In this document: positions 920-15,196 of the stretch, piece after piece
Layout: each line of letters begins with the position of its first letter
Numbering within the stretch: position 1 is the first letter of the stretch
Position numbers and translations under genes: made by a program
Origin: a virus
Lineage: Duplodnaviria > Heunggongvirae > Uroviricota > Caudoviricetes
Strand: one strand, 5' to 3'
IMG/VR virus record: IMGVR_UViG_2558860472_000005
Location: 1-34,628 of that record
Length of the DNA: 34,628 bases
The notes under the pieces: generated by a model
What the model saw: the letters and a program-made list of their open reading frames with translations, nothing else
What the model was told of the DNA's origin: nothing
Database searches by the model: none

Positions 920-2104
920 TTAACCAGTTTTGATTTCCCCGTGTGGAACGACAATCCAATTAATGTGGTTTTGAGTGTAAATCTTAGTCGACTGAGCGTC
1001 GCTATGTGCCATTCGTCCTTGGGGATCGATACCCTGCTGATCGAAAAGATGCGCTGCCAGAGCTCTGATTTCATGAAAGGTTGGTCTTTCATCCATCGGT
1101 AGATTGTCGCATAAACCTAGCTTGTCTCGCGTTGCTGAAAACGATCGACTCAAATAGTCTGGTGCAACTTGTGTCGGATGTGAAACCTCTTTGCTTCGTT
1201 TAACTTGGCGTTCTGGGATTCTGTGAACGACAAACGGACTAGCCACATTATCTCGGCTATCGTCAATTATCCGTTTCAACTCTTCACCAATTGGTATTGC
1301 AACGTGTGACGCCTCTTTTTTTTGCACTTTTTGCCTGTGGATGTAAAGCGTCCCATATATGCCATTTTGTGGTTGTTCGAACCAGACACATCCACATATA
1401 CCGTCTTTAGGTTCGCGAATTGAGTAACGGATTCGCGATACTTCGAGTCGTGCATGTGTAGTTTGCAATGCTAGGTCCATTGCTGTTCTTAACCATGGTG
1501 CAGCGGCCTGCCTGATAGCTATAAAATGCTCGAGTGACAGGCGCCGTCTTTTCTTCTCATCAGTCCTACGCATTTTTTTTCTGATGGCCGGGTTATCCAG
1601 CATTAGTGATTCATCGACCGCATAAGAGAACAACTTTTTAAGAAAGCTGACCTTTCTGTTCTGCACATTTGCGGATGCGCTGGCATGATATTTGTTGATG
1701 TAGGTATTAACGTGTTCAAGTTCGATATCGCATGCCGGAACATTTACGAAAAACGCTTTTACGCGTAGAGCGTCATTTTTCCAGTCATCTAAGGTGCTCT
1801 GGGAAGGACGTTCGTCTTCGATAATCCGGGTCATTATGTGATCAACATGTTCAGCAAATGGTTTTGCTTCTCCGATAACACCGCCAGATTCTCTAATAAG
1901 ATTTTCTACTGATGGAGATAATTCTGCTCTCATCCTCAGGTTGTACTCTCTGGCGATTGCAATGGCTATTGCCCTATCCTTACCTATATTTTTCTTCTTT
2001 CCAGTAATAAGTGTGAATTTATAAACACCTCGATCTTTATCAAAAATCAGATAATCAGGAAGATGTCTGTATTCTTTTTTACGTGGCCTTGCCGCCATGG
2101 TCAC
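920..2104 (-). CDS. int: Tyrosine-type phage integrase
   Basis: 394 aa; C-terminal catalytic region with HEIRALAAH (His-x-x-Arg) and KIYTQNH (nucleophile Tyr) motifs; Xis-like gene immediately upstream on the same strand. Confidence 0.9.
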   Translation of the reverse strand: MTMAARPRKKEYRHLPDYLIFDKDRGVYKFTLITGKKKNIGKDRAIAIAIAREYNLRMRAELSPSVENLIRESGGVIGEAKPFAEHVDHIMTRIIEDERPSQSTLDDWKNDALRVKAFFVNVPACDIELEHVNTYINKYHASASANVQNRKVSFLKKLFSYAVDESLMLDNPAIRKKMRRTDEKKRRRLSLEHFIAIRQAAAPWLRTAMDLALQTTHARLEVSRIRYSIREPKDGICGCVWFEQPQNGIYGTLYIHRQKVQKKEASHVAIPIGEELKRIIDDSRDNVASPFVVHRIPERQVKRSKEVSHPTQVAPDYLSRSFSATRDKLGLCDNLPMDERPTFHEIRALAAHLFDQQGIDPQGRMAHSDAQSTKIYTQNHINWIVVPHGEIKTG

Positions 2105-4998: not shown

Positions 4999-5673
4999 TT
5001 AGGCTTTGATTTTGTATCTTCTTGGTTTTCCTGAGAAAATCACTGTACCAATTATAGAGCAATTACCGTTGATCTTAATGTAAGGCTCAGGCCAGTTTGG
5101 GTTTAACGCTTTGAGATAACGCTGTGTCCCATCTTCTATCAACCTTTTGAAGGTGGTTTCACCTGTATCGTGCATCAATGCAATAACGTCGTCACCGTGG
5201 CAGGCAGGTACTTCAGGATCGACAAAAATCATGTCTCCCGGGCGGTACTCATCAATCATTGAATCACCTATCACCCGCAAGATATAAGTCATTTCCCCAC
5301 AGGGTACAGGGCAGGGATACGTTTCTGCTGTGCTCAAATCAACCTCAGAATATCCAACTTCTTTCCATGCTCCGGCCTGTACCCATGATATGACAGGGAC
5401 TAATGTGATTTGTTTATTAGTGATTGAAACATCAGGTTTTTTTGTGATGTTCGTTGTCTGGTGTTCTTGATCGAGCCATCCGACAGGCAGGTCGAAACAT
5501 CTTTCGATGTGTCGTGCCATGCTGTCACCGATATTTTTAGTAGCACCATCTCCCATAAACCTGCTGGTCTGGGTTGGCTCGCGATCAATCATAGTGGCAA
5601 AGGAAGAATTCCCGCCAACACCATCTCTCAGTTTTCTGGCGTTAGACCGCCGGATGTCATGGATTGTTTTCAT
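4999..5673 (-). CDS. cI: CI-type repressor (HTH plus S24 LexA-like peptidase domain)
   Basis: 224 aa; C-terminal S24 signature (GDSM nucleophile Ser, downstream Lys in TTFKRL); candidate Ala-Gly autocleavage site (VQAGAW); divergent from the Cro-like gene. Confidence 0.85.
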   Translation of the reverse strand: MKTIHDIRRSNARKLRDGVGGNSSFATMIDREPTQTSRFMGDGATKNIGDSMARHIERCFDLPVGWLDQEHQTTNITKKPDVSITNKQITLVPVISWVQAGAWKEVGYSEVDLSTAETYPCPVPCGEMTYILRVIGDSMIDEYRPGDMIFVDPEVPACHGDDVIALMHDTGETTFKRLIEDGTQRYLKALNPNWPEPYIKINGNCSIIGTVIFSGKPRRYKIKA

Positions 5674-5688
5674 AACGAAATTAAAACC

Positions 5689-5760
5689 CTTGTACCGTTA
5701 AGGTACAAGTATCTTGAAGGTTCATTTTAATCATGTAATATGTACACCGGAGGTACATAT
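5689..5760. promoter_or_regulatory. cI-cro intergenic operator/promoter region
   Basis: Palindrome CTTGTACC-n5-GGTACAAG (5689-5709) and ATATGTAC-n7-GTACATAT (5738-5760); four GTAC cores in two pairs 11 bp apart; candidate rightward promoter -35 TTGAAG (5714-5719), -10 TAATAT (5736-5741). Confidence 0.45.
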
Positions 5761-5763
5761 TGT

Positions 5764-5964
5764 ATGAAAGCGTATTGGGACTCTTTAACCAAAGAACAGC
5801 AGGGCGAGTTGGCCGGAAAAGTTGGCTCAACACCTGGCTACTTACGGCTGGTTTTCAATGGCTATAAAAAAGCCAGTTTTGTGCTGGCTAAAAAACTTGA
5901 GCAATGCACGTCAGGTGCAATTACGAAATCTGACTTAAGACCGGATATCTATCCGAAAGATTAG
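5764..5964 (+). CDS. cro: Cro-like HTH regulator (YdaS/Cro family)
   Basis: 66 aa from ATG 5764 (ORF-track start 5740 less likely); divergent from cI; C-terminal ...ITKSDLRPDIY motif typical of this family. Confidence 0.7.
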   Translation: MKAYWDSLTKEQQGELAGKVGSTPGYLRLVFNGYKKASFVLAKKLEQCTSGAITKSDLRPDIYPKD

Positions 5965-5995: not shown

Positions 5996-6565
5996 ATGAG
6001 GCTAATCGTGGGTAAGCATCACTGGAAAATAGAAAAACAGCCTGAGTGGTACGTGAAAGCTGTCAGAAAAACTATCGCGGCGTTGCCGGGTGGTTACGCT
6101 GAAGCGGCTGACTGGCTCGATGTAACAGAAAACGCTTTATTCAACCGCCTTCGTGCAGATGGCGATCAGATTTTCCCGCTGGGATGGGCAATGGTTTTAC
6201 AGCGTGCTGGTGGCACTCACTTCATTGCTGATGCTGTGGCGCAGTCTGCAAATGGCGTCTTTGTGTCTCTTTCTGACGTCGAGGATGTGGACAACGCCGA
6301 TATTAACCAGCGTCTGCTGGAAGTCATTGAACAGATCGGCAGTTATTCAAAACAGATTCGTTCAGCAATCGAAGACGGTGTAGTGGAACCGCATGAGAAG
6401 ACAGCAATTAACGACGAGCTGTATCTCTCAATTTCGAAGCTGCAGGAGCATGCAGCACTTGTCTACAAAATTTTTTGCATTTCAGAAAGTAATGACGCCC
6501 GCGAGTGTGCAGCTCCGGGCGTCGTGGCGTCGATTGCTTCTGGTTGTGGAGAAACTAACGCATGA
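5996..6565 (+). CDS. CII-like early regulatory protein (tentative)
   Basis: 189 aa directly downstream of cro in the cII position; family assignment from memory and uncertain; start may be internal. Confidence 0.45.
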
Positions 6566-6909: not shown

Positions 6910-7851
6910 ATGAGCACTAAATTAACCGGCTATGTATGGGATGGTTGCGCTGCATCAGGCATGAAGTTATCCAGCGTGGCAATTATGGCCCGCCTGGCTG
7001 ATTTCAGTAATGACGAAGGTGTGTGCTGGCCATCAATTGAAACCATTGCCCGTCAGATTGGCGCGGGGATGAGTACCGTCAGAACGGCTATCGCACGGCT
7101 GGAAGCAGAAGGCTGGTTAACGCGTAAGGCGCGTCGCCAGGGTAACCGCAATGCGTCGAATGTTTATCAGCTTAACGTTGCGAAGCTTCAGGCAGCGGCA
7201 TTTTCTCAACTGTCAGATTCTGACCCGTCAAAATCTGACGCATCAAAATCTGACCCGTCAAAATTTGATGCGTCGAAATCTGGCAAAAAAGCGGGTTTTC
7301 ACCCGTCAGAATCTGGCGGGGATCCGTCAGTAAAATCAAAACATGATCCGTCAGATAAAAAACCTTCTCGTCCGGACGCTTCGCAACCGGACACGCAGAC
7401 GGCTGAACAGGATTTTTTAACTCGCCATCCTGATGCGGTTGTATTCAGCCCTAAAAAGCGCCAGTGGGGAACGCAGGATGATTTGACCTGCGCACAGTGG
7501 CTCTGGAAAAAAATCATCGCCCTGTACGAGCAGGCCGCCGAATGTGACGGCGAGGTGGTTCGTCCCAAAGAACCGAACTGGACAGCCTGGGCAAACGAAA
7601 TTCGCCTGATGTGTGTGCAGGATGGTCGTAATCATAAACAAATCTGCGAGATGTACAGCCGCGTCAGTCGCGATCCGTTCTGGTGCCGTAACGTGCTCAG
7701 CCCGTCGAAGCTGCGGGAAAAATGGGATGAGCTTTCCCTGCGCTTATCGCCGTCCGTCAGCACGTACACCGAAAAACGCGAAGACCCGTACTTCAAATCC
7801 AGTTACGACAACGTGGACTACAGCCAGATCCCGGCAGGATTCAGGGGGTGA
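6910..7851 (+). CDS. Replication initiator (lambda O-like, N-terminal HTH)
   Basis: 313 aa; N-terminal HTH-like DNA-binding region; internal 15-bp direct repeats (iterons) encoding a DPSKSD/ASKSD peptide repeat, as in lambda ori inside gene O. Confidence 0.75.
   Translation: MSTKLTGYVWDGCAASGMKLSSVAIMARLADFSNDEGVCWPSIETIARQIGAGMSTVRTAIARLEAEGWLTRKARRQGNRNASNVYQLNVAKLQAAAFSQLSDSDPSKSDASKSDPSKFDASKSGKKAGFHPSESGGDPSVKSKHDPSDKKPSRPDASQPDTQTAEQDFLTRHPDAVVFSPKKRQWGTQDDLTCAQWLWKKIIALYEQAAECDGEVVRPKEPNWTAWANEIRLMCVQDGRNHKQICEMYSRVSRDPFWCRNVLSPSKLREKWDELSLRLSPSVSTYTEKREDPYFKSSYDNVDYSQIPAGFRG
7211..7362. repeat. Iteron array (candidate replication origin) inside the O-like gene
   Basis: About five contiguous 15-bp repeats (CCGTCAAAATCTGAC and variants) at 7211-7284, then three degenerate copies to 7362. 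Confidence 0.55.
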
Positions 7852-7853
7852 TC

Positions 7854-8342
7854 ATGAGTCTGTTAAATGACGTTCAGAAATTCATTGAAGCCCATCCTGG
7901 GTGTACTTCCGGAGACATTGCGGATGCTTTTGCAGGTTACTCACGGCAGCGCGTTCTGCAGTCTGCAAGCAAGTTACGTCAGAGTGGGCGTGTGGCTCAC
8001 CGTTGTGAAGGAGATACACGCAGACATTTCCCGCGCCTGACTGAGAGAGCGCAGGAGCCGGAACCACAACCAGTTCGTGAAACCAGACCTGTGCGCAATT
8101 TCTATGTCGGCACTAACGATCCCCGGGTGATTTTGTGCCTGACCCGCCAGGCTGAAGAACTGGAGTCAAGGGGCTTATACCGTCGTGCTGCAACCGTGTG
8201 GATGGCGGCATTCCGTGAAAGCCACTCCCAGCCAGAACGAAACAATTTTCTGGCGCGTCGTGAGCAGTGCTTACAGAAAAGCAGCAAGCGCGCTGCATCG
8301 GGTGAAGAGTGGTATCTGTCAGGGAATTACGTGGGGGCGTAA
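7854..8342 (+). CDS. PerC-family-like transcriptional regulator
   Basis: ATG 7854 with SD AGGGGG; ELESRGLYRRAATVWMAAF matches the PerC/Pch L-E-x-x-G-L-[WY]-R-R-A-x-x-W hallmark (from memory). Confidence 0.55.
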   Translation: MSLLNDVQKFIEAHPGCTSGDIADAFAGYSRQRVLQSASKLRQSGRVAHRCEGDTRRHFPRLTERAQEPEPQPVRETRPVRNFYVGTNDPRVILCLTRQAEELESRGLYRRAATVWMAAFRESHSQPERNNFLARREQCLQKSSKRAASGEEWYLSGNYVGA

Positions 8343-8668
8343 TGACGACGTTAACTCAATGCCAGCAGCAGGTGCTGGATATGCTGATTTCTTATCAGAA
8401 AGAGCGTGGCTTTCCGCCAACCAATCAGGAGGTGGCAACCATGGTGGGATACCGTTCGGTGAATGCAGCGGTGGAGCATCTTCGCGCACTGGAGAAAAAA
8501 GGCCTCATCACGATAAAGCGTGGCGTGGCACGGGGGATAACGCTTCATACCGCTGTGAAGGACGACGACAGCGAGGCGGTCGGGATTATCCGCGCACTGC
8601 TTGCCGGTGAGGAAAACGCCAGGCTGCGTGCAGCCCACTGGTTACATGAGAGGGGCCTGAAAGTATGA
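8342..8668 (+). CDS. LexA-like DNA-binding-domain protein lacking the peptidase domain
   Basis: 108 aa from ATG 8342 (TAATG overlap); N-terminus resembles the LexA winged-HTH domain (compare LexA MKALTARQQEVFDLI...PNAAEEHLKALARKG); no S24 domain follows. Confidence 0.7.
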   Translation: MTTLTQCQQQVLDMLISYQKERGFPPTNQEVATMVGYRSVNAAVEHLRALEKKGLITIKRGVARGITLHTAVKDDDSEAVGIIRALLAGEENARLRAAHWLHERGLKV

Positions 8669-9054
8669 AGCTGATTCTGCCTTTTCCGCCCAGCGTGAAC
8701 ACGTACTGGCGACACCCCAACAAAGGGGCGTTTGCTGGTAAGAGCCTGATAAGCGCGGCGGGGCGCAAATTCCAGAGCGCGGCGTGTGCAGCAATAGTTG
8801 AGCAGTTACGTCGTCTGCCAAAACCAACGTCGGCACCTGCTTCAGTGGAGATCGTGTTGTTTCCACCGGATAACCGGATCCGCGATCTGGACAACTATAA
8901 CAAGGCGCTGTTTGACGCCCTGACCCACGCGGGTGTGTGGGAGGACGACAGTCAGGTGAAAAGAATGCTGGTGGAGTGGGGGCCGGTTATCCCGGAAGGG
9001 AAGGTCGAGATCACTATCAGTAAGTACGAGAAAACGGCGGGTGCAGCCGCCTGA
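8665..9054 (+). CDS. rusA: RusA Holliday-junction resolvase
   Basis: 129 aa; PFPPSVNTYWRH N-terminus and DLDNYNKALFDAL ... EDDSQV catalytic-region motifs typical of RusA. Confidence 0.85.
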   Translation: MKLILPFPPSVNTYWRHPNKGAFAGKSLISAAGRKFQSAACAAIVEQLRRLPKPTSAPASVEIVLFPPDNRIRDLDNYNKALFDALTHAGVWEDDSQVKRMLVEWGPVIPEGKVEITISKYEKTAGAAA

Positions 9055-9073: not shown

Positions 9074-9871
9074 ATGAATAATCTGATGGTCATTGATGGT
9101 ATTGAAGTTCGTCGTGATGCTTATGGGCGTTACAGCCTGAACGATCTGCACAGGGCTGCCGGTTCTCAGGATAAGCATAAGCCTGCATTTTGGCTCCGCA
9201 ATGAGCAAACCGAACGTTTAATAAGCGAGTTGCAGATTTGCAACTCGGTCAATATAGAGCCAGTTAACGTTAGTCGTGGCGGAAATAACCAGGGGACGTA
9301 TGTCTGCAAAGAACTGGTGTATGCCTATGCAATGTGGATCAGCCCGTCATTCCATCTGAAGGTGATCCGTACTTTCGATATGGTAACCAGCGCACCGGAA
9401 AAATTATCCGGGCAGGCTGCTGACAAGATGCAGGCTGGTGTAATTCTGCTGGACTTTATGCGTCGGGAGTTAAACCTGTCTAACTCATCTGTGCTTGGTG
9501 CCTGTCAGAAACTCCAGGAGGCTGTTGGCTTACCGAATCTGGCACCGCGCTATGCCATTGATGCTCCTGCTGACGCGCCTGATGGCTCAAGTCGCCCCAC
9601 GCTGTCGCTGAGTGCACTGCTGAAACAGTATGGTATCCGCCTTACGGCTAATCAGGCATATCACCAGATGGTGAAGCTGGGGATCGTCGAGCAGCGCGAA
9701 CGATACAGCCGTACCTCGATTAACAACATCAAAAAATTCTGGTCGCTGACAGCGAAAGGCTGCATGTTCGGCAAGAACATCACCAGTCCCGCAAATCCGC
9801 GCGAGACGCAGCCGCATTTCTTCGAATCCCGATTCCCTGAGCTGTTAAAGCTGCTCGATACCGTTCATTGA
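9074..9871 (+). CDS. KilA-N domain protein (antirepressor-like)
   Basis: 265 aa; N-terminal VIDGIEVRRDAYGRYSLNDLHRAAG matches the KilA-N DNA-binding domain. Confidence 0.7.
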   Translation: MNNLMVIDGIEVRRDAYGRYSLNDLHRAAGSQDKHKPAFWLRNEQTERLISELQICNSVNIEPVNVSRGGNNQGTYVCKELVYAYAMWISPSFHLKVIRTFDMVTSAPEKLSGQAADKMQAGVILLDFMRRELNLSNSSVLGACQKLQEAVGLPNLAPRYAIDAPADAPDGSSRPTLSLSALLKQYGIRLTANQAYHQMVKLGIVEQRERYSRTSINNIKKFWSLTAKGCMFGKNITSPANPRETQPHFFESRFPELLKLLDTVH

Positions 9872-9872
9872 G

Positions 9873-10868
9873 GTGACTGTGAGAGCACTACTGACCCCTG
9901 AAATTGCCCCGCGTATGGGGATCGTATTGTTCAGACCAGGTTCAGAGCTGATGCCCCTGTTTATGCAGGGGCGTGTCCTGCTGGAGCCTGAGCCGGAACG
10001 TTATTCATCTTTCGCCAGTGGTGCCGTTCCGGCGGCATCACAACCGCTGGCGGATGATCCTGCCGTTCGGGCCGTGTTCCGCAATGAGGCAGTGATCCGT
10101 CGTGCTGGTGGCGTGGAATGTCTTGAAAGCTGGTTACTTCGTGAAAAAAGCTGTCAGTGGCCTCATTCCGACTGGCATAGCGAGAACATGACAACAATGC
10201 GACACGCGCCGGGCGCAATCCGTCTGTGCTGGCACTGTGATAATCAGCTGCGCGATCAGTTCACGGAACGGCTGGAATCAATGGCAACGGATAACTGTGC
10301 CCGCTGGGTGTTGTCTGTTGTGCGTCGGGATCTCGGTTTTGATGATAGTCACGTTGTGACAATGCCGGAACTGTGCTGGTGGCTGATTCGTAATGATCTG
10401 GCGGATGCCTTACCGGAAAGTGCAGCCCGTAAGGCACTGAGATTACCGAAGCCTGTTGTGCCGTCTGTTACCCGGGAAAGTGACCTTGTGCCTTCGGTTC
10501 CTGCCACCAGCATCATCCAGGATAAAGCGAAAAAGGTGCTGGCGCTGAAAGTGGATCCGGAGTCGCCGGAGTCTTTTATGTTACGCCCTAAACGTCGCCG
10601 CTGGGTTAACGAAAAGTACACGCGCTGGGTTAAGACGCAGCCGTGTGCATGTTGTGGAAAGCCTGCTGATGATCCCCACCACCTGATAGGTCACGGTCAG
10701 GGTGGAATGGGTACAAAAGCGCATGACCTCTTTGTGTTGCCTTTGTGCAGAAAGCATCACGACGAGCTGCATGCGGATACTGTGGCATTTGAAGATAAAT
10801 ATGGCTCTCAACTGGAGCTGATATTTCGTTTTATCGATCGTGCGCTGGCAACTGGCGTGCTGGCCTGA
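9873..10868 (+). CDS. DUF968-like phage protein with C-terminal Cys/His zinc-finger (HNH-like) motif
   Basis: 331 aa, GTG start; C-terminal CACCGK...[10 protein letters not shown]...CRKHHDELH cluster; usual position between RusA/KilA and Q. Confidence 0.55.
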
Positions 10869-10885
10869 TTTTGTGGAGAAAGTTG

Positions 10886-11257
10886 ATGCGTGATATTCAA
10901 ATGGTTCTTGAACGTTGGGGTGCATGGGTGGCAAATAATCACGAGGATGTCACTTGGTCGTCTATTGCTGCAGGATTTAAAGGACTAATCCCTTCAAAAG
11001 TAAAATCCCGCCCGCAATGTTGTGACGATGACGCGATGATCATTTGTGGGTGTATGGCTCGCCTGAAAAAGAACAACAGCGATTTGCACGATTTATTAGT
11101 GGATTACTATGTAGGAGGTATGACATTTATGGCGCTTGCCCGTAAACATGGGCGTTCTGATTGCTGGGTTGGGCGTTTATTGCAAAAAGCGGAAGGAGTA
11201 GTTGATGGTATGTTGATAATGCTAGATATTGAATTGGAAATGGAACGTAAAATTTAG
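10886..11257 (+). CDS. Late-gene antiterminator Q-like protein
   Basis: ATG 10886 with SD GGAGA; ERWGAWV and [21 protein letters not shown] motifs resemble Q family (from memory); immediately upstream of lysis region. Confidence 0.65.
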
Positions 11258-11486: not shown

Positions 11487-12014
11487 ATGTTATGGCTTAT
11501 TGAGTTAGTTAATAGGATGATTGAATCAATGCTTTCAAATGTAATTTTAAGTGGAGCTATGTCCACGTTATTGGCTGCATTTCTAATTTTTGTGTTTAAG
11601 GAGTATATAAAAAGGCCACCTAATTTTTCAGGGGTGTTTGAGATCGAGTGTAAAACGCTAAAATCATCATATAATTCATATGTAAACCTAACTACATTCT
11701 ATACATTAGTGTTGATTTGTGATAATAACACTATAGAAGGACATATTGAAAAAATAAAAGATATCGAAAATGATGGGTATGAAAGAAAATATATTGGCGT
11801 GCATCGCAATATTGGCGATGTCAATGGTGTAATTAAAAGAAATTACTTAAGACCTAACCATGCTTCGTTGAATATAAAAATGCATGGTGATAAGAGGGAT
11901 TATACTATTATGCTATATTTTAAGAAGGTGAATACGAAAAATATGAAAGGAACTTTTTTATCTACTGCTGCAGATTCTTCTGGAGATGTTAAGTGGCAGC
12001 GAAAAAATTTTTAA
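11487..12014 (+). CDS. Hypothetical membrane-anchored protein (AT-rich cargo, first gene of pair)
   Basis: 175 aa; N-terminal TM helix (VILSGAMSTLLAAFLIFVF); very AT-rich; 22-nt overlap with the next gene; no family recognised. Confidence 0.5.
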   Translation: MLWLIELVNRMIESMLSNVILSGAMSTLLAAFLIFVFKEYIKRPPNFSGVFEIECKTLKSSYNSYVNLTTFYTLVLICDNNTIEGHIEKIKDIENDGYERKYIGVHRNIGDVNGVIKRNYLRPNHASLNIKMHGDKRDYTIMLYFKKVNTKNMKGTFLSTAADSSGDVKWQRKNF

Positions 12015-12637
12015 TTTATTTACTGTCGTTGCCATATTTAATAATGGCTTCGATTATCATAAAGCTTAAAGTTAAAAGTATAATTGATGATTATGAGAAA
12101 TGTACTACTTATATTTACTGTAACTCGAAGAAATATAATAACATTTCTCCTGTTATGATTGATATATTAAGGTTAGCAGAGGATCATCGACAATTATTGC
12201 ATAGAGGGATTGACCCCATTGCAATCATTAGAACTTTTTATCTGAGGATATTTAAAAATATACACCAAGGAGCGAGCACTATAGAACAGCAGTTTGTGAG
12301 AACTATAACTAAAAGATACGAAAAAACAATACGTAGAAAGATAAGAGAGCAGATATTGGCTATATTGATTAGAAATGTATCAACTCCAGATGATATATGT
12401 AAGTGTTATCTTTCTTGTTGTTACTATGGCTATGGAACTTATGGGATAGATAATCTTTTAAAAAAGAAACAAAATATCAGTGATTTTGATATTGTTGCAA
12501 TGATTAAATATCCATTCAGGGGAGAAGTTGTTTCAGTTACAGAGGAACGATTTAAACATAGGTCGCTCTATCTTTCCACTTTATATAAATTAAATGCACA
12601 AAGGGATATGATTTTTTTGCGAAAATATAGTGGGTGA
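11993..12637 (+). CDS. GT51 (peptidoglycan glycosyltransferase/transglycosylase)-like domain protein, membrane-anchored
   Basis: 214 aa from GTG; hydrophobic N-terminus; four GT51 motifs in order and native-like spacing: EDHRQLLHRGID, GASTIEQQ, RRKIREQ, YLSCCYYGYGTYG; both putative catalytic Glu present. Confidence 0.7.
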   Translation: MAAKKFLIYLLSLPYLIMASIIIKLKVKSIIDDYEKCTTYIYCNSKKYNNISPVMIDILRLAEDHRQLLHRGIDPIAIIRTFYLRIFKNIHQGASTIEQQFVRTITKRYEKTIRRKIREQILAILIRNVSTPDDICKCYLSCCYYGYGTYGIDNLLKKKQNISDFDIVAMIKYPFRGEVVSVTEERFKHRSLYLSTLYKLNAQRDMIFLRKYSG

Positions 12638-13338: not shown

Positions 13339-13815
13339 ATGCAGGCACTAAATTCCCAGCGTAAAGCTTTCCTTGATATGGTGGCATGGTCAGAAGGAAC
13401 GGATAACGGGCGACAACCGACACGTAACCACGGTTATGACGTTATTGTTGGTGGTGAACTGTTTACTGATTACTCCGATCATCCTCGCAAACTTGTCACG
13501 CTAAACCCCAAACTCAAATCAACAGCCGCCGGACGTTACCAGCTTCTTTCACGTTGGTGGGATGCTTACCGTAAACAGCTTGGTTTGAAAGACTTCTCCC
13601 CCAAAAGCCAGGACGCTGTGGCATTGCAGCAGATTAAAGAACGTGGCGCTTTACCGATGATTGATCGTGGTGATATTCGTCAGGCTATCGACCGTTGCAG
13701 CAATATCTGGGCTTCGTTGCCGGGCGCTGGTTACGGTCAGTATGAACATAAAATTGGTGACCTGATTGCCAGGTTTAAAGAGGTTGGCGGGGTGGTAAAT
13801 GAAGTTGAGCTATAA
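13339..13815 (+). CDS. R: Endolysin, lambda R-type lytic transglycosylase
   Basis: 158 aa; near-identical over most of its length to lambda R as recalled (NQRKAFLDM.AWSEGTDNGRQ.TRNHGYDVIVGGELFTDYSDHPRKLVTLNPKLKST...). Confidence 0.95.
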   Translation: MQALNSQRKAFLDMVAWSEGTDNGRQPTRNHGYDVIVGGELFTDYSDHPRKLVTLNPKLKSTAAGRYQLLSRWWDAYRKQLGLKDFSPKSQDAVALQQIKERGALPMIDRGDIRQAIDRCSNIWASLPGAGYGQYEHKIGDLIARFKEVGGVVNEVEL

Positions 13816-14260
13816 GCTAGTTATCGCTGCTTTCTTCGTTACTATTATTGGTTCTTTCATCTGGTCAGCGAATCATTACCACAATCAAGCCATTGAATAC
13901 AAAAAGCAGCGCGACGAAAACGCTATGGCATTACATTCGGCTATGGCGACGATCTCTGATATGCAGAAGCGTCAACGTGACGTAGCTGAACTTGACGCCA
14001 GATACACAAAGGAGCTTGCTGATGCTAACACGACTCTCGAAAGTCTCCGTACTGATGTCTCTGCTGGTCGTAAGCGCTTGCAATTCGCCGCCACCTGTGC
14101 AAAGTCAACGACCGGAGCCAGCGGCATGGGCTATGGAGAAAGTCCAAGACTTACAGCTGATGCTGAACTCAATTATTACCGCCTCCGAAGTGGGATCGAC
14201 AAGATAACTGCACAGGTTAACTACTTGCAGGAGTACATCAAGACACAGTGCCAGAAATGA
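13799..14260 (+). CDS. Rz: Rz i-spanin
   Basis: 153 aa; N-terminal TM anchor, coiled-coil body; strong similarity to lambda Rz (AVNHY...QRD.NA...DMQ.RQRDVA.LDA.YTKELADA). Confidence 0.9.
   Translation: MKLSYKLVIAAFFVTIIGSFIWSANHYHNQAIEYKKQRDENAMALHSAMATISDMQKRQRDVAELDARYTKELADANTTLESLRTDVSAGRKRLQFAATCAKSTTGASGMGYGESPRLTADAELNYYRLRSGIDKITAQVNYLQEYIKTQCQK
14022..14207 (+). CDS. Rz1: Rz1 o-spanin lipoprotein (embedded in Rz, alternate frame)
   Basis: ATG 14022 with SD AAGGAG; signal peptide with lipobox-like VSAC; proline-rich mature region (NSPPPVQSQRPEPAAW); nested in Rz as in lambda. Confidence 0.75.
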   Translation: MLTRLSKVSVLMSLLVVSACNSPPPVQSQRPEPAAWAMEKVQDLQLMLNSIITASEVGSTR

Positions 14261-14332: not shown

Positions 14333-15196
14333 ATGGAAAGAGGTGTGGTATTTAGTGCATGCGAATTACTTAAAACCGAGGATGGAAAAGGCATCCGTAC
14401 AGGTAAATGGATTAGTCAATTAGAAATAAACTATCTATGTCTTTATTGGGATAAACTAGTTTCACCCACTAATAATATTATACATACAGCATTAAATAAC
14501 GAGGATGAATTAGAAAAATGTGGATTGCTAACCAGACCGGTATATAGACATCATGGTTGTTTTGATGGCCAATATATGGCGGATTTTTATGCTGAAACTC
14601 ATGCCAAAACAATAGATATACTTAGGCATGCGGATTCTTCTGTCGATTGGCGCATGCATTTTTTAAGTGACCAAATAAACTTGGTGCCTGAATTATCTAG
14701 AACCTCAGAAGTGATACGTTTTGAGCTAGCAAATTTATTACCCGTTCCCACAGAAGATGTGCACCTACATGATATTCTTGATTTCAAGGAAAGAAGAAAA
14801 CCTGAATTAATCGCTTTACATGAATATCTTGATGAGCTTTACTTGGAAATAAAACGTTCTGGTGATATCAATCTTCAGAAAGCAAAAGCTCTTTCTAATC
14901 TTAAACAAGCAATAAAGGATATCGAACGCTTAAATTGTGAAGTGTGGAAAAGTCCAATAAAATTTAGCATCTCTACTTCTTTTGAGTTCGATTTTTCACA
15001 AATATTTAGTCTGGCGGGAACTGTTTTATCTATGTCAGTAGATTATCCTTATAATGTTATTGGAGGGGTAAGTAGTTTGGCTTGTTTTTTGGGAGGATGC
15101 ATAAAAATAAAGCCGCAATTTCAACAAGTGTTATCATTAGGTAATGATAAATTAGTTTACATAAGCAAAGGAAAATCGGAGGGTATTATTTCCTGA
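14333..15196 (+). CDS. Hypothetical protein (AT-rich cargo between lysis and packaging modules)
   Basis: 287 aa; AT-rich; hydrophobic C-terminal segment (FSLAGTVLSMSV...GGVSSLACFLGG); no family recognised. Confidence 0.5.
   Translation: MERGVVFSACELLKTEDGKGIRTGKWISQLEINYLCLYWDKLVSPTNNIIHTALNNEDELEKCGLLTRPVYRHHGCFDGQYMADFYAETHAKTIDILRHADSSVDWRMHFLSDQINLVPELSRTSEVIRFELANLLPVPTEDVHLHDILDFKERRKPELIALHEYLDELYLEIKRSGDINLQKAKALSNLKQAIKDIERLNCEVWKSPIKFSISTSFEFDFSQIFSLAGTVLSMSVDYPYNVIGGVSSLACFLGGCIKIKPQFQQVLSLGNDKLVYISKGKSEGIIS

Follow-up and report, generated by a model that had tools for sequence, protein, structure and literature searches.

Do two small regulator-like genes lying directly behind the replication gene of an Escherichia coli prophage act on the host, one by activating virulence genes and the other by occupying SOS boxes, or do they serve the phage itself? 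The question was raised by a first-pass annotation of the window (the whole stretch of 34,628 nucleotides analysed here), which described positions 7854-8668 as a pair of overlapping genes encoding a PerC-like regulator and a LexA DNA-binding domain without a peptidase. The first gene is an orthologue of yfdN of E. coli K-12. The second encodes a LexA-family protein without the peptidase domain, for which the label LexN is used here.

Two early genes of a common prophage

The window is a lambdoid prophage of the CPS-53/SfII/SfIV/mEp460 type, with the following features.

920-2104, minus strand: integrase
4999-5673, minus strand: CI-type repressor with a Peptidase_S24 domain (Pfam Peptidase_S24, 92.8 bits)
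5996-6565: CII/YmfL-like gene
6910-7851, plus strand: O-like replication initiator, adjoining gene 1 upstream (PHROG 391 "replication initiation O-like", E 6e-135; Pfam HTH_36)
7854-8342, plus strand: gene 1, yfdN orthologue (97% identical to K-12 YfdN b2357; PHROG 1324, E 7e-78; Pfam PerC, 36.3 bits)
7854-8057, plus strand: N-terminal region of YfdN, aa 1-68, a probable winged helix-turn-helix (weak PHROG/NCBIfam matches)
8145-8300, plus strand: PerC-family domain of YfdN, aa 98-149 (Pfam PF06069), carrying the motif AEELESRGLYRRAATVW at 8160-8201
8342-8668, plus strand: gene 2, LexN, 108 aa (Pfam LexA_DNA_bind, 68.4 bits; PHROG 362 end to end)
8342-8551, plus strand: LexA-type winged helix-turn-helix of LexN, aa 1-70 (AlphaFold2, Foldseek, alignment)
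8561-8650, plus strand: C-terminal helical hairpin of LexN, aa 74-88 and 93-103 (AlphaFold2 model, conservation)
8665-9054, plus strand: RusA Holliday-junction resolvase (Pfam RusA)
9074-9871: KilA-N protein
9873-10868: DUF968/HNH protein
10871-11257: antiterminator Q

Lysis genes, the terminase and HK97-type head and tail genes follow 3' of antiterminator Q. The S24 domain of the repressor makes it probable that the prophage can be induced by the SOS response. A PADLOC search for a defence or anti-defence role returned sub-threshold noise only.

Both genes lie on the plus strand within the early rightward operon, directly 3' of the O-like replication gene, and the placement that had been claimed for them is correct, rep ending at 7851 and yfdN starting at 7854. 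The ATG of yfdN at 7854 has a GGGGG Shine-Dalgarno sequence in front of it and yields a product of 162 aa; an alternative GTG start at 7848, which is used in RefSeq relatives and overlaps the rep stop codon, yields 164 aa. The two genes do overlap as described, the extent being one base only, at which the LexN start codon (ATG at 8342) meets the yfdN stop codon (TAATG). At its other end, the LexN stop overlaps the rusA start by 4 nt (ATGA). A consensus-based scan found no promoter-like site on the plus strand between the rep gene and rusA. The lack of an internal promoter, together with the overlapping stop/start junctions, would place yfdN and LexN on the early rightward transcript. The run from rep through yfdN and LexN to rusA would be uninterrupted and translationally coupled, and YfdN and LexN would be made only after cleavage of the S24-type repressor or upon infection. 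DFI-seq fragments from the homologous region of strain UTI89 have been listed as urine-induced (PMC5404293), so that some expression of yfdN and LexN in lysogens is possible.

Neither gene is new, both having been annotated before; they belong to the ordinary early gene set of a prophage that is very common in E. coli. A search of 5426 complete E. coli genomes located the 1.3-kb segment that holds yfdN and LexN in 2689 of them, with 3397 of its 3409 places on chromosomes, which puts the two genes, present in about half of the complete genomes, among the commonest prophage genes of this species. The segment also occurs in 50 deposited phages, including SfII, SfIV, mEp460 and Stx2/Stx2c-converting phages; Shigella serotype-converting phages and the Stx2 and Stx2c phages of O157 are thus among its carriers. 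In the deposited phages, the products are labelled "PerC family transcriptional regulator" and "LexA DNA binding domain protein / transcriptional repressor"; the labels across SfII, SfIV, mEp460, the Stx2 phages and RefSeq E. coli genomes are "PerC family" for the first product and "LexA family" or "LexA DNA binding domain protein" for the second.

Two known relatives are instructive for the arrangement of the locus. First, genes 42 and 44 of Shigella phage SfII, annotated as "PerC transcriptional activator family protein" and "LexA DNA binding domain protein / transcriptional repressor", and their equivalents in SfIV, mEp460 and the Stx2/Stx2c phages share 96-97% DNA identity with the window. 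A dam methylase gene lies between the two genes in SfII, mEp460 and most of the others but is absent in SfIV and in the window. Second, K-12 YfdN (b2357, in the cryptic prophage CPS-53) is 97% identical over 164 aa to the protein of the window and is encoded in the same place, 3' of the replication-gene remnant yfdO. Unlike the window, CPS-53 has its LexA-like gene deleted and carries a truncated dam (yfdM) downstream of yfdN. The annotation of K-12 YfdN is still "uncharacterized".

The view that the two regulators form a pair did not hold when their neighbourhood was followed across 204 IMG/VR loci with LexN relatives, which are 41-99% identical to the protein of the window. In these loci yfdN lay upstream of LexN in 146 of the 204 (by clade, 76/80, 0/10, 66/80 and 4/34). 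The gene rusA followed LexN with the same 4-nt ATGA overlap in 169 (in the same order of clades, 76/80, 10/10, 77/80 and 6/34), and a DUF968 gene was near LexN in 190 (71/80, 10/10, 76/80 and 33/34). LexN is thus tied less closely to yfdN than to rusA and DUF968. Among the close relatives, a dam methylase gene separates yfdN and LexN in 53 of 80; in SfII and most relatives it occupies 650 bp, reaching exactly from the yfdN stop to the LexN start. Because this dam cassette is absent from the window and present in most relatives, the direct contact of yfdN and LexN in the window represents a cassette polymorphism. K-12, furthermore, has kept yfdN and lost LexN. The adjacency of the two genes is incidental and does not speak for a functional pairing.

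A link of YfdN to the replication protein, as an analogue of a helicase loader, was also considered and found no support, as the replication genes in front of yfdN differ at least in part. Matches of mEp460 and Stx2 phages to the window start only 75 nt upstream of yfdN, and rep of the window type was detected in 53 of 80 loci, compared to 76 of 80 for yfdN.

Domains of YfdN and LexN

Both domain assignments of the first-pass annotation were borne out, with Pfam scores far beyond chance for each gene. YfdN matched the Pfam PerC family (PF06069) through aa 98-149 with 36.3 bits (gathering score 22.6; E 6.7e-9), and its C-terminal 82 aa scanned alone scored 38.3 bits. The hallmark motif LESRGLYRRAATVW is encoded at 8160-8201, as had been noticed. 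In an alignment of YfdN with two plasmid PerC-family proteins (one an 88-aa protein of an E. albertii plasmid, the other from an IncF plasmid) and a distant phage YfdN, the pattern AEELExxGxYRRAAxxW ... R ... C was common to YfdN and the plasmid proteins, at an identity over the PerC domain of about 35-42% with marginal E-values. A comparison with the ANR family (NF033650) gave 22.2 bits for the C-terminal domain, which is below the cut-off of 32, and membership of YfdN in that family was rejected on this score.

YfdN does not have the PerC-domain-only architecture, as it has about 95 additional aa at its N-terminus, joined to the PerC domain by a Pro/Glu-rich linker. PHROG 1324 covers the protein in full length, while other PHROGs match either the N-terminal 103 aa only or the C-terminal 83 aa only; these separate matches indicate that YfdN is a protein of two modules. 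The N-terminal region scanned alone had no match in Pfam and had weak matches to PHROG 1687 (MarR-type, E 6.6e-5) and to NCBIfam BilQ (E 0.0033). It is a probable DNA binder of the winged-helix type, as far as such remote resemblances allow. The plasmid PerC-family proteins are small by comparison (88 and 114 aa in the two that were fetched), whereas YfdN has 162 aa and the winged-helix-like domain at its N-terminus.

In LexN, residues 1-65 matched the whole of the Pfam model LexA_DNA_bind (PF01726, 1-65 of 65; 68.4 bits, E 4.5e-19), and the entire protein (aa 1-108) matched PHROG 362 (1-106 of 106, E 1e-58). The score of 70.3 against TIGR00498, the NCBIfam equivalog model of LexA, remained below its cut-off of 110.95. 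The resemblance to LexA, which spuriousness in an alignment would have undone, is genuine: LexN is 41% identical to residues 1-86 of E. coli LexA, and the best Foldseek match of its model was chain 3jso_B of a LexA-DNA complex (rmsd 0.8 Å over 68 columns, 47% identity). A Pfam scan for Peptidase_S24 in LexN gave no match, and the protein stops at residue 108. LexN is therefore not cleavable by RecA-stimulated self-cleavage, as had been proposed, because the S24 domain that would carry it out is missing.

A single-sequence AlphaFold2 model of LexN was poor (pLDDT 63.6), and the model used here was built from an alignment of 30 sequences (pLDDT 82.9). Its winged part comprises helices 6-22, 28-35 and 40-52 and strands 56-58 and 66-68. 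A low-pLDDT linker (71-74) leads to a confident helical hairpin made of residues 74-88 and 93-103. Compared to E. coli LexA (PDB 3JSO, 1LEA), LexN has the same winged helix-turn-helix fold, the wing R64-G65-I66 and all but one of the five DNA-contact residues. It differs in having no S24 catalytic and dimerisation domain (Ser119, Lys156 in LexA), in having V where LexA has E44, and in its C-terminal module, the hairpin, which LexA does not share.

The hairpin tail had no family in Pfam when scanned alone. It is retained down to about 40% identity in prophages of Cronobacter, Klebsiella, Enterobacter, Salmonella and Atlantibacter. Among 30 diverse members A97 and L101 never vary and A93 hardly does, and broad hydrophobic faces or stripes run along the helices of the tail. 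This monomer model suggests a putative module for oligomerisation or partner binding. An exhaustive HMMER and profile search showed that the wider LexN family consists of proteins of 105-135 aa, each a LexA domain with the hairpin, in prophages of Salmonella, Citrobacter, Hafnia, Cronobacter, Klebsiella, Enterobacter, Kosakonia and Atlantibacter. Predicted viral structures, too, often include LexA-domain-only proteins of 70-150 aa.

The sequence LLAGE of LexN aligns with VAAGE of LexA, which contains the Ala84-Gly85 cleavage site, in the E. coli clade. The Ala-Gly of LexN varies across the family and sits inside a predicted helix, and no catalytic domain is present. The idea that LexN is a paralogue of the phage's own repressor, acting as a Cro-like competitor, was rejected as the DNA-binding part of the S24 repressor shares no similarity with LexN. 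A comparison of LexN with YfdN likewise showed no similarity.

Targets of LexN

The explanation that we favour for the locus as a whole, if tentatively, is that yfdN and LexN are conserved accessory genes of the early operon, expressed on induction or infection, with LexN a clade-specific regulator and YfdN a modulator. The mechanism assigned to each of the two genes is somewhat more doubtful than this general account. LexN would oligomerise through its hairpin and regulate the lytic programme by binding DNA in a sequence-specific manner. The site that it binds would be specific to the phage or the clade, and LexN would be no general stand-in for LexA on the boxes of the host SOS regulon. With regard to what LexN binds, such a phage- or clade-specific site comes first, as a possibility we lean towards, followed by mimicry at SOS boxes, which is rather doubtful, and by a role as an accessory of RusA or DUF968, which is unlikely.

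The comparison of recognition helices bears most directly on this ranking. LexA contacts DNA through S39, N41, A42, E44 and E45 (PMC3091678), and LexN of the window has S39, N41, A42, V44 and E45 at these places, with V44 as the exception. A survey of 101 LexN-family clusters yielded 22 distinct recognition helices, in which S39 never varies and N41 occurs in 21. None of the 22 has Glu at position 44; at position 45 there is Glu in 12 of them, Asp in five, Leu in two and Thr, Ala and Gly in one each. Enterobacteriaceae, the hosts of all these phages, share the same SOS box. The variation at positions 44 and 45 despite this single host SOS box, alongside conserved synteny and a conserved tail, argues that SOS-box recognition is not the shared function of the family, since mimicry as a common task would be expected to hold the two positions fixed.

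A precedent for a phage-specific site is provided by gp6 of GIL01, a tectivirus of Bacillus thuringiensis. [quoted passage not shown] Like LexN, gp6 is phage-encoded and has only the DNA-binding domain of LexA, and its production falls early in the lytic programme (PMC6182141). Unlike LexN, it is primarily a winged helix without the hairpin tail, and its phage and host are unrelated to those considered here. The resemblance is one of architecture; site binding and promoter activation are what is known of gp6. Literature searches for a characterised LexA-domain-only phage protein of enterobacteria found none.

The main weakness of the preferred model is the missing candidate operator in the phage. 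A search of the inverted repeats between 4500 and 13100 for a LexN operator yielded no candidate and returned only the cI/cro operators, the iterons of the origin and terminator-like stems. CTGT/ACAG palindromes at spacings of 0-24 in both orientations showed no excess over chance in the window, and SOS boxes in the window (exact CTGT-N8-ACAG, a relaxed 20-mer consensus and CTG-N10-CAG) were likewise not above chance.

The second reading, which had been put forward in the first-pass annotation, takes LexN as a RecA-proof surrogate of LexA that would occupy CTGT-N8-ACAG boxes after host LexA has been cleaved and, while the phage grows lytically, would switch off again the SOS genes, or else those antirepressors and colicins of competing elements that LexA controls. 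From its sequence we consider this reading possible for the clade of the window but improbable as a whole, as the family-wide comparison disfavours it. Several features fit it well. [quoted passage not shown] The order of DNA-binding domain, linker and putative oligomerisation module parallels the layout of LexA, LexN has no S24 domain, and the prophage that encodes it is probably SOS-inducible. Furthermore, the phage is without an SOS-like box, so that a binder of CTGT would act elsewhere. Against these points, E44 is replaced in every member of the LexN family and position 45 is other than Glu in 10 of the 22 helix variants. The spacing of half-sites would depend on the geometry of a putative LexN dimer, and gp6 demonstrates that this degree of identity to LexA need not mean binding to LexA boxes (PMC6182141).

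In its farthest-reaching form, this reading would have LexN dimerise through the hairpin and re-occupy SOS boxes after induction, as a widespread anti-SOS device in about half of the E. coli genomes searched, which we regard as slightly less probable again. Such a device, if real, would shut off host SOS functions and the LexA-controlled antirepressors, colicins and defence genes of rivals during phage replication. Binding of LexN to SOS boxes would make it a phage-encoded switch that is not inducible by DNA damage, and it would bear on competition among prophages, on the antibiotic-triggered induction of Stx phages and on SOS-driven mutagenesis.

A third reading sees LexN not as a transcription factor but as the DNA-binding subunit of a recombination and repair module together with RusA and the DUF968/HNH nuclease, in which the winged helix would serve general or structure-directed DNA binding and the hairpin would dock a partner enzyme. 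This reading appears unlikely. The ATGA overlap with rusA in 169 of 204 loci, even in lineages only 41-50% identical to LexN of the window, the nearby DUF968 gene in 190 of 204, and a tail that is better conserved than the base-contacting positions of the helix are in its favour. The coupling is weak evidence, however, since overlapping stops and starts are usual in this operon (rep/yfdN, yfdN/LexN), and in the P0256-type clade the tail persists although a rusA of the window type or the L174 type was detected in only 10 of 34 loci. RusA and DUF968 genes are also found in prophages without LexN, and we know of no partner that RusA needs; both points count against the accessory role.

YfdN and virulence activation

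In the account that we favour, YfdN would bind DNA through its N-terminal domain, and its PerC/ANR-like helical domain would make protein-protein contacts that modulate transcription. Members of the ANR family (Aar and its relatives) are small helical regulators that contact AraC-type activators and H-NS (PMC5570504); the C-terminal domain of YfdN is a weak match to this family.

The alternative that YfdN acts like PerC and PchABC and turns on ler and LEE virulence regulons in the lysogen is, from the sequence evidence, very unlikely. The first-pass annotation had described PerC/Pch proteins at large as virulence activators, which stands for some members (PerC, PchABC) and fails for others. 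Like EPEC PerC and EHEC PchA/B/C, YfdN has the PerC domain, above the Pfam threshold, and the AEELExxGxYRRAA..W motif; Stx2 and Stx2c phages of O157 carry the module; and yfdN was deleted from K-12 as a precaution ahead of ler reporter assays (PMC5931665). Activation of LEE1, however, is documented for PerC and PchABC only (PMC5931665), with which the kinship of YfdN is one of sequence. In O157, only the group 1 Pch proteins strongly activate ler, with PchE giving less than 2-fold and PchD no activation (PMC5931665); PchE acts rather as a repressor of curli and adhesion (PMC6265319, PMC7369912). Among phage-inducible chromosomal islands (PICIs), EcCIMP1 encodes a PerC-family protein that represses LEE1, and the corresponding proteins of two others are without effect (PMC11773190). 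With PchD and PchE minimally active and the PICI proteins null or repressing, membership in the PerC family is no predictor of LEE activation.

Features of YfdN itself also weigh against a virulence role. Its PerC domain is divergent (about 35-42% identity to plasmid PerC-family proteins), it has the extra N-terminal domain, and its gene sits in a lytic early operon. The known carriers of yfdN, moreover, include K-12, UTI89 and Shigella phages. To our knowledge, K-12 and Shigella are without the LEE.

Two published phenotypes give indirect hints only with regard to yfdN: a library fragment of UTI89 carrying a small ORF, rep and yfdN2 caused filamentation on over-expression (PMC6206680), and an ASKA clone of yfdN altered glycogen staining (PMC2853380).

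Gene linkage of the LexA-like gene and the dam insertion site

The LexA-like gene is linked more tightly to rusA and to a DUF968/HNH gene than to yfdN. Its stop codon overlaps the start codon of rusA in an ATGA (8665-8668 in the window) at 169 of the 204 IMG/VR loci with relatives of the protein (L003-L207), and this overlap spans lineages whose LexA-like proteins share just 41-50% identity with that of the window. A DUF968/HNH gene lies near the LexA-like gene in 190 of these 204 loci.

Presence of a dam methylase cassette is polymorphic, and its site is precisely where yfdN stops and the LexA-like gene starts. The window and SfIV lack the cassette; SfII, mEp460, UTI89, and 53 of the 80 close viral loci carry it. 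Two UTI89 regions have also appeared in published screens: fragments of the homologous rusA/LexA-like/dam/yfdN1 region were listed as urine-induced in DFI-seq (PMC5404293), and filamentation followed over-expression of a fragment that spans yfdN2, the replication gene and an ORF of 74 aa (PMC6206680).

Comparison loci for the junction and the screens
8340-8344, yfdN/LexA-like junction; dam methylase cassette at L002 6741-7394
L208 (UTI89 4997073-4999597), filamentation fragment region

Resemblance to the LexA cleavage site

The LexA-like protein carries ALLAG at residues 85-89 (8594-8608). In the alignment of its E. coli clade, "VAAGE" of LexA (the cleavage-site region, Ala84-Gly85) pairs with "LLAGE" of the LexA-like protein. 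Other clades do not conserve the Ala-Gly, which falls within a predicted helix. "LLAGE" may be a relic of a full-length LexA ancestor, or may have arisen by chance.

Putative origin and immunity operators

Within the O-like replication gene, GTCAAAATCTGAC-type repeats cluster at 7212-7274 in both direct and inverted orientation, and their translation is the repeated peptide SDxSKSD. This cluster is very probably the iteron-type replication origin, comparable to that in lambda O. The interval separating the repressor gene from the rightward early genes holds palindromes that probably serve as immunity operators and bear no relation to LexA boxes.

Palindromes
5689-5709, CTTGTACC/GGTACAAG
5731-5767, TCATGTAATATGTAC/GTACATATTGTATGA

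Moron-like ORFs and the KilA-N gene

The KilA-N protein (9074-9871) gave a weak PADLOC match, over a short stretch, to the candidate defence model PDC-S22 (E 9e-7), which probably reflects no more than a shared KilA-N/Bro-type domain. Moron-like ORFs are present at 11487-12637 and 14333-15196. In L001, the closest genome, the position of the DUF6236 ORF is instead occupied by iss on the opposite strand.

Moron-like and neighbouring ORFs
11487-12014, no family match, between Q and holin
11993-12637, transglycosylase-domain ORF, between Q and holin
13799-14260, ORF at the Rz position
14333-15196, DUF6236 ORF, downstream of the Rz-position ORF
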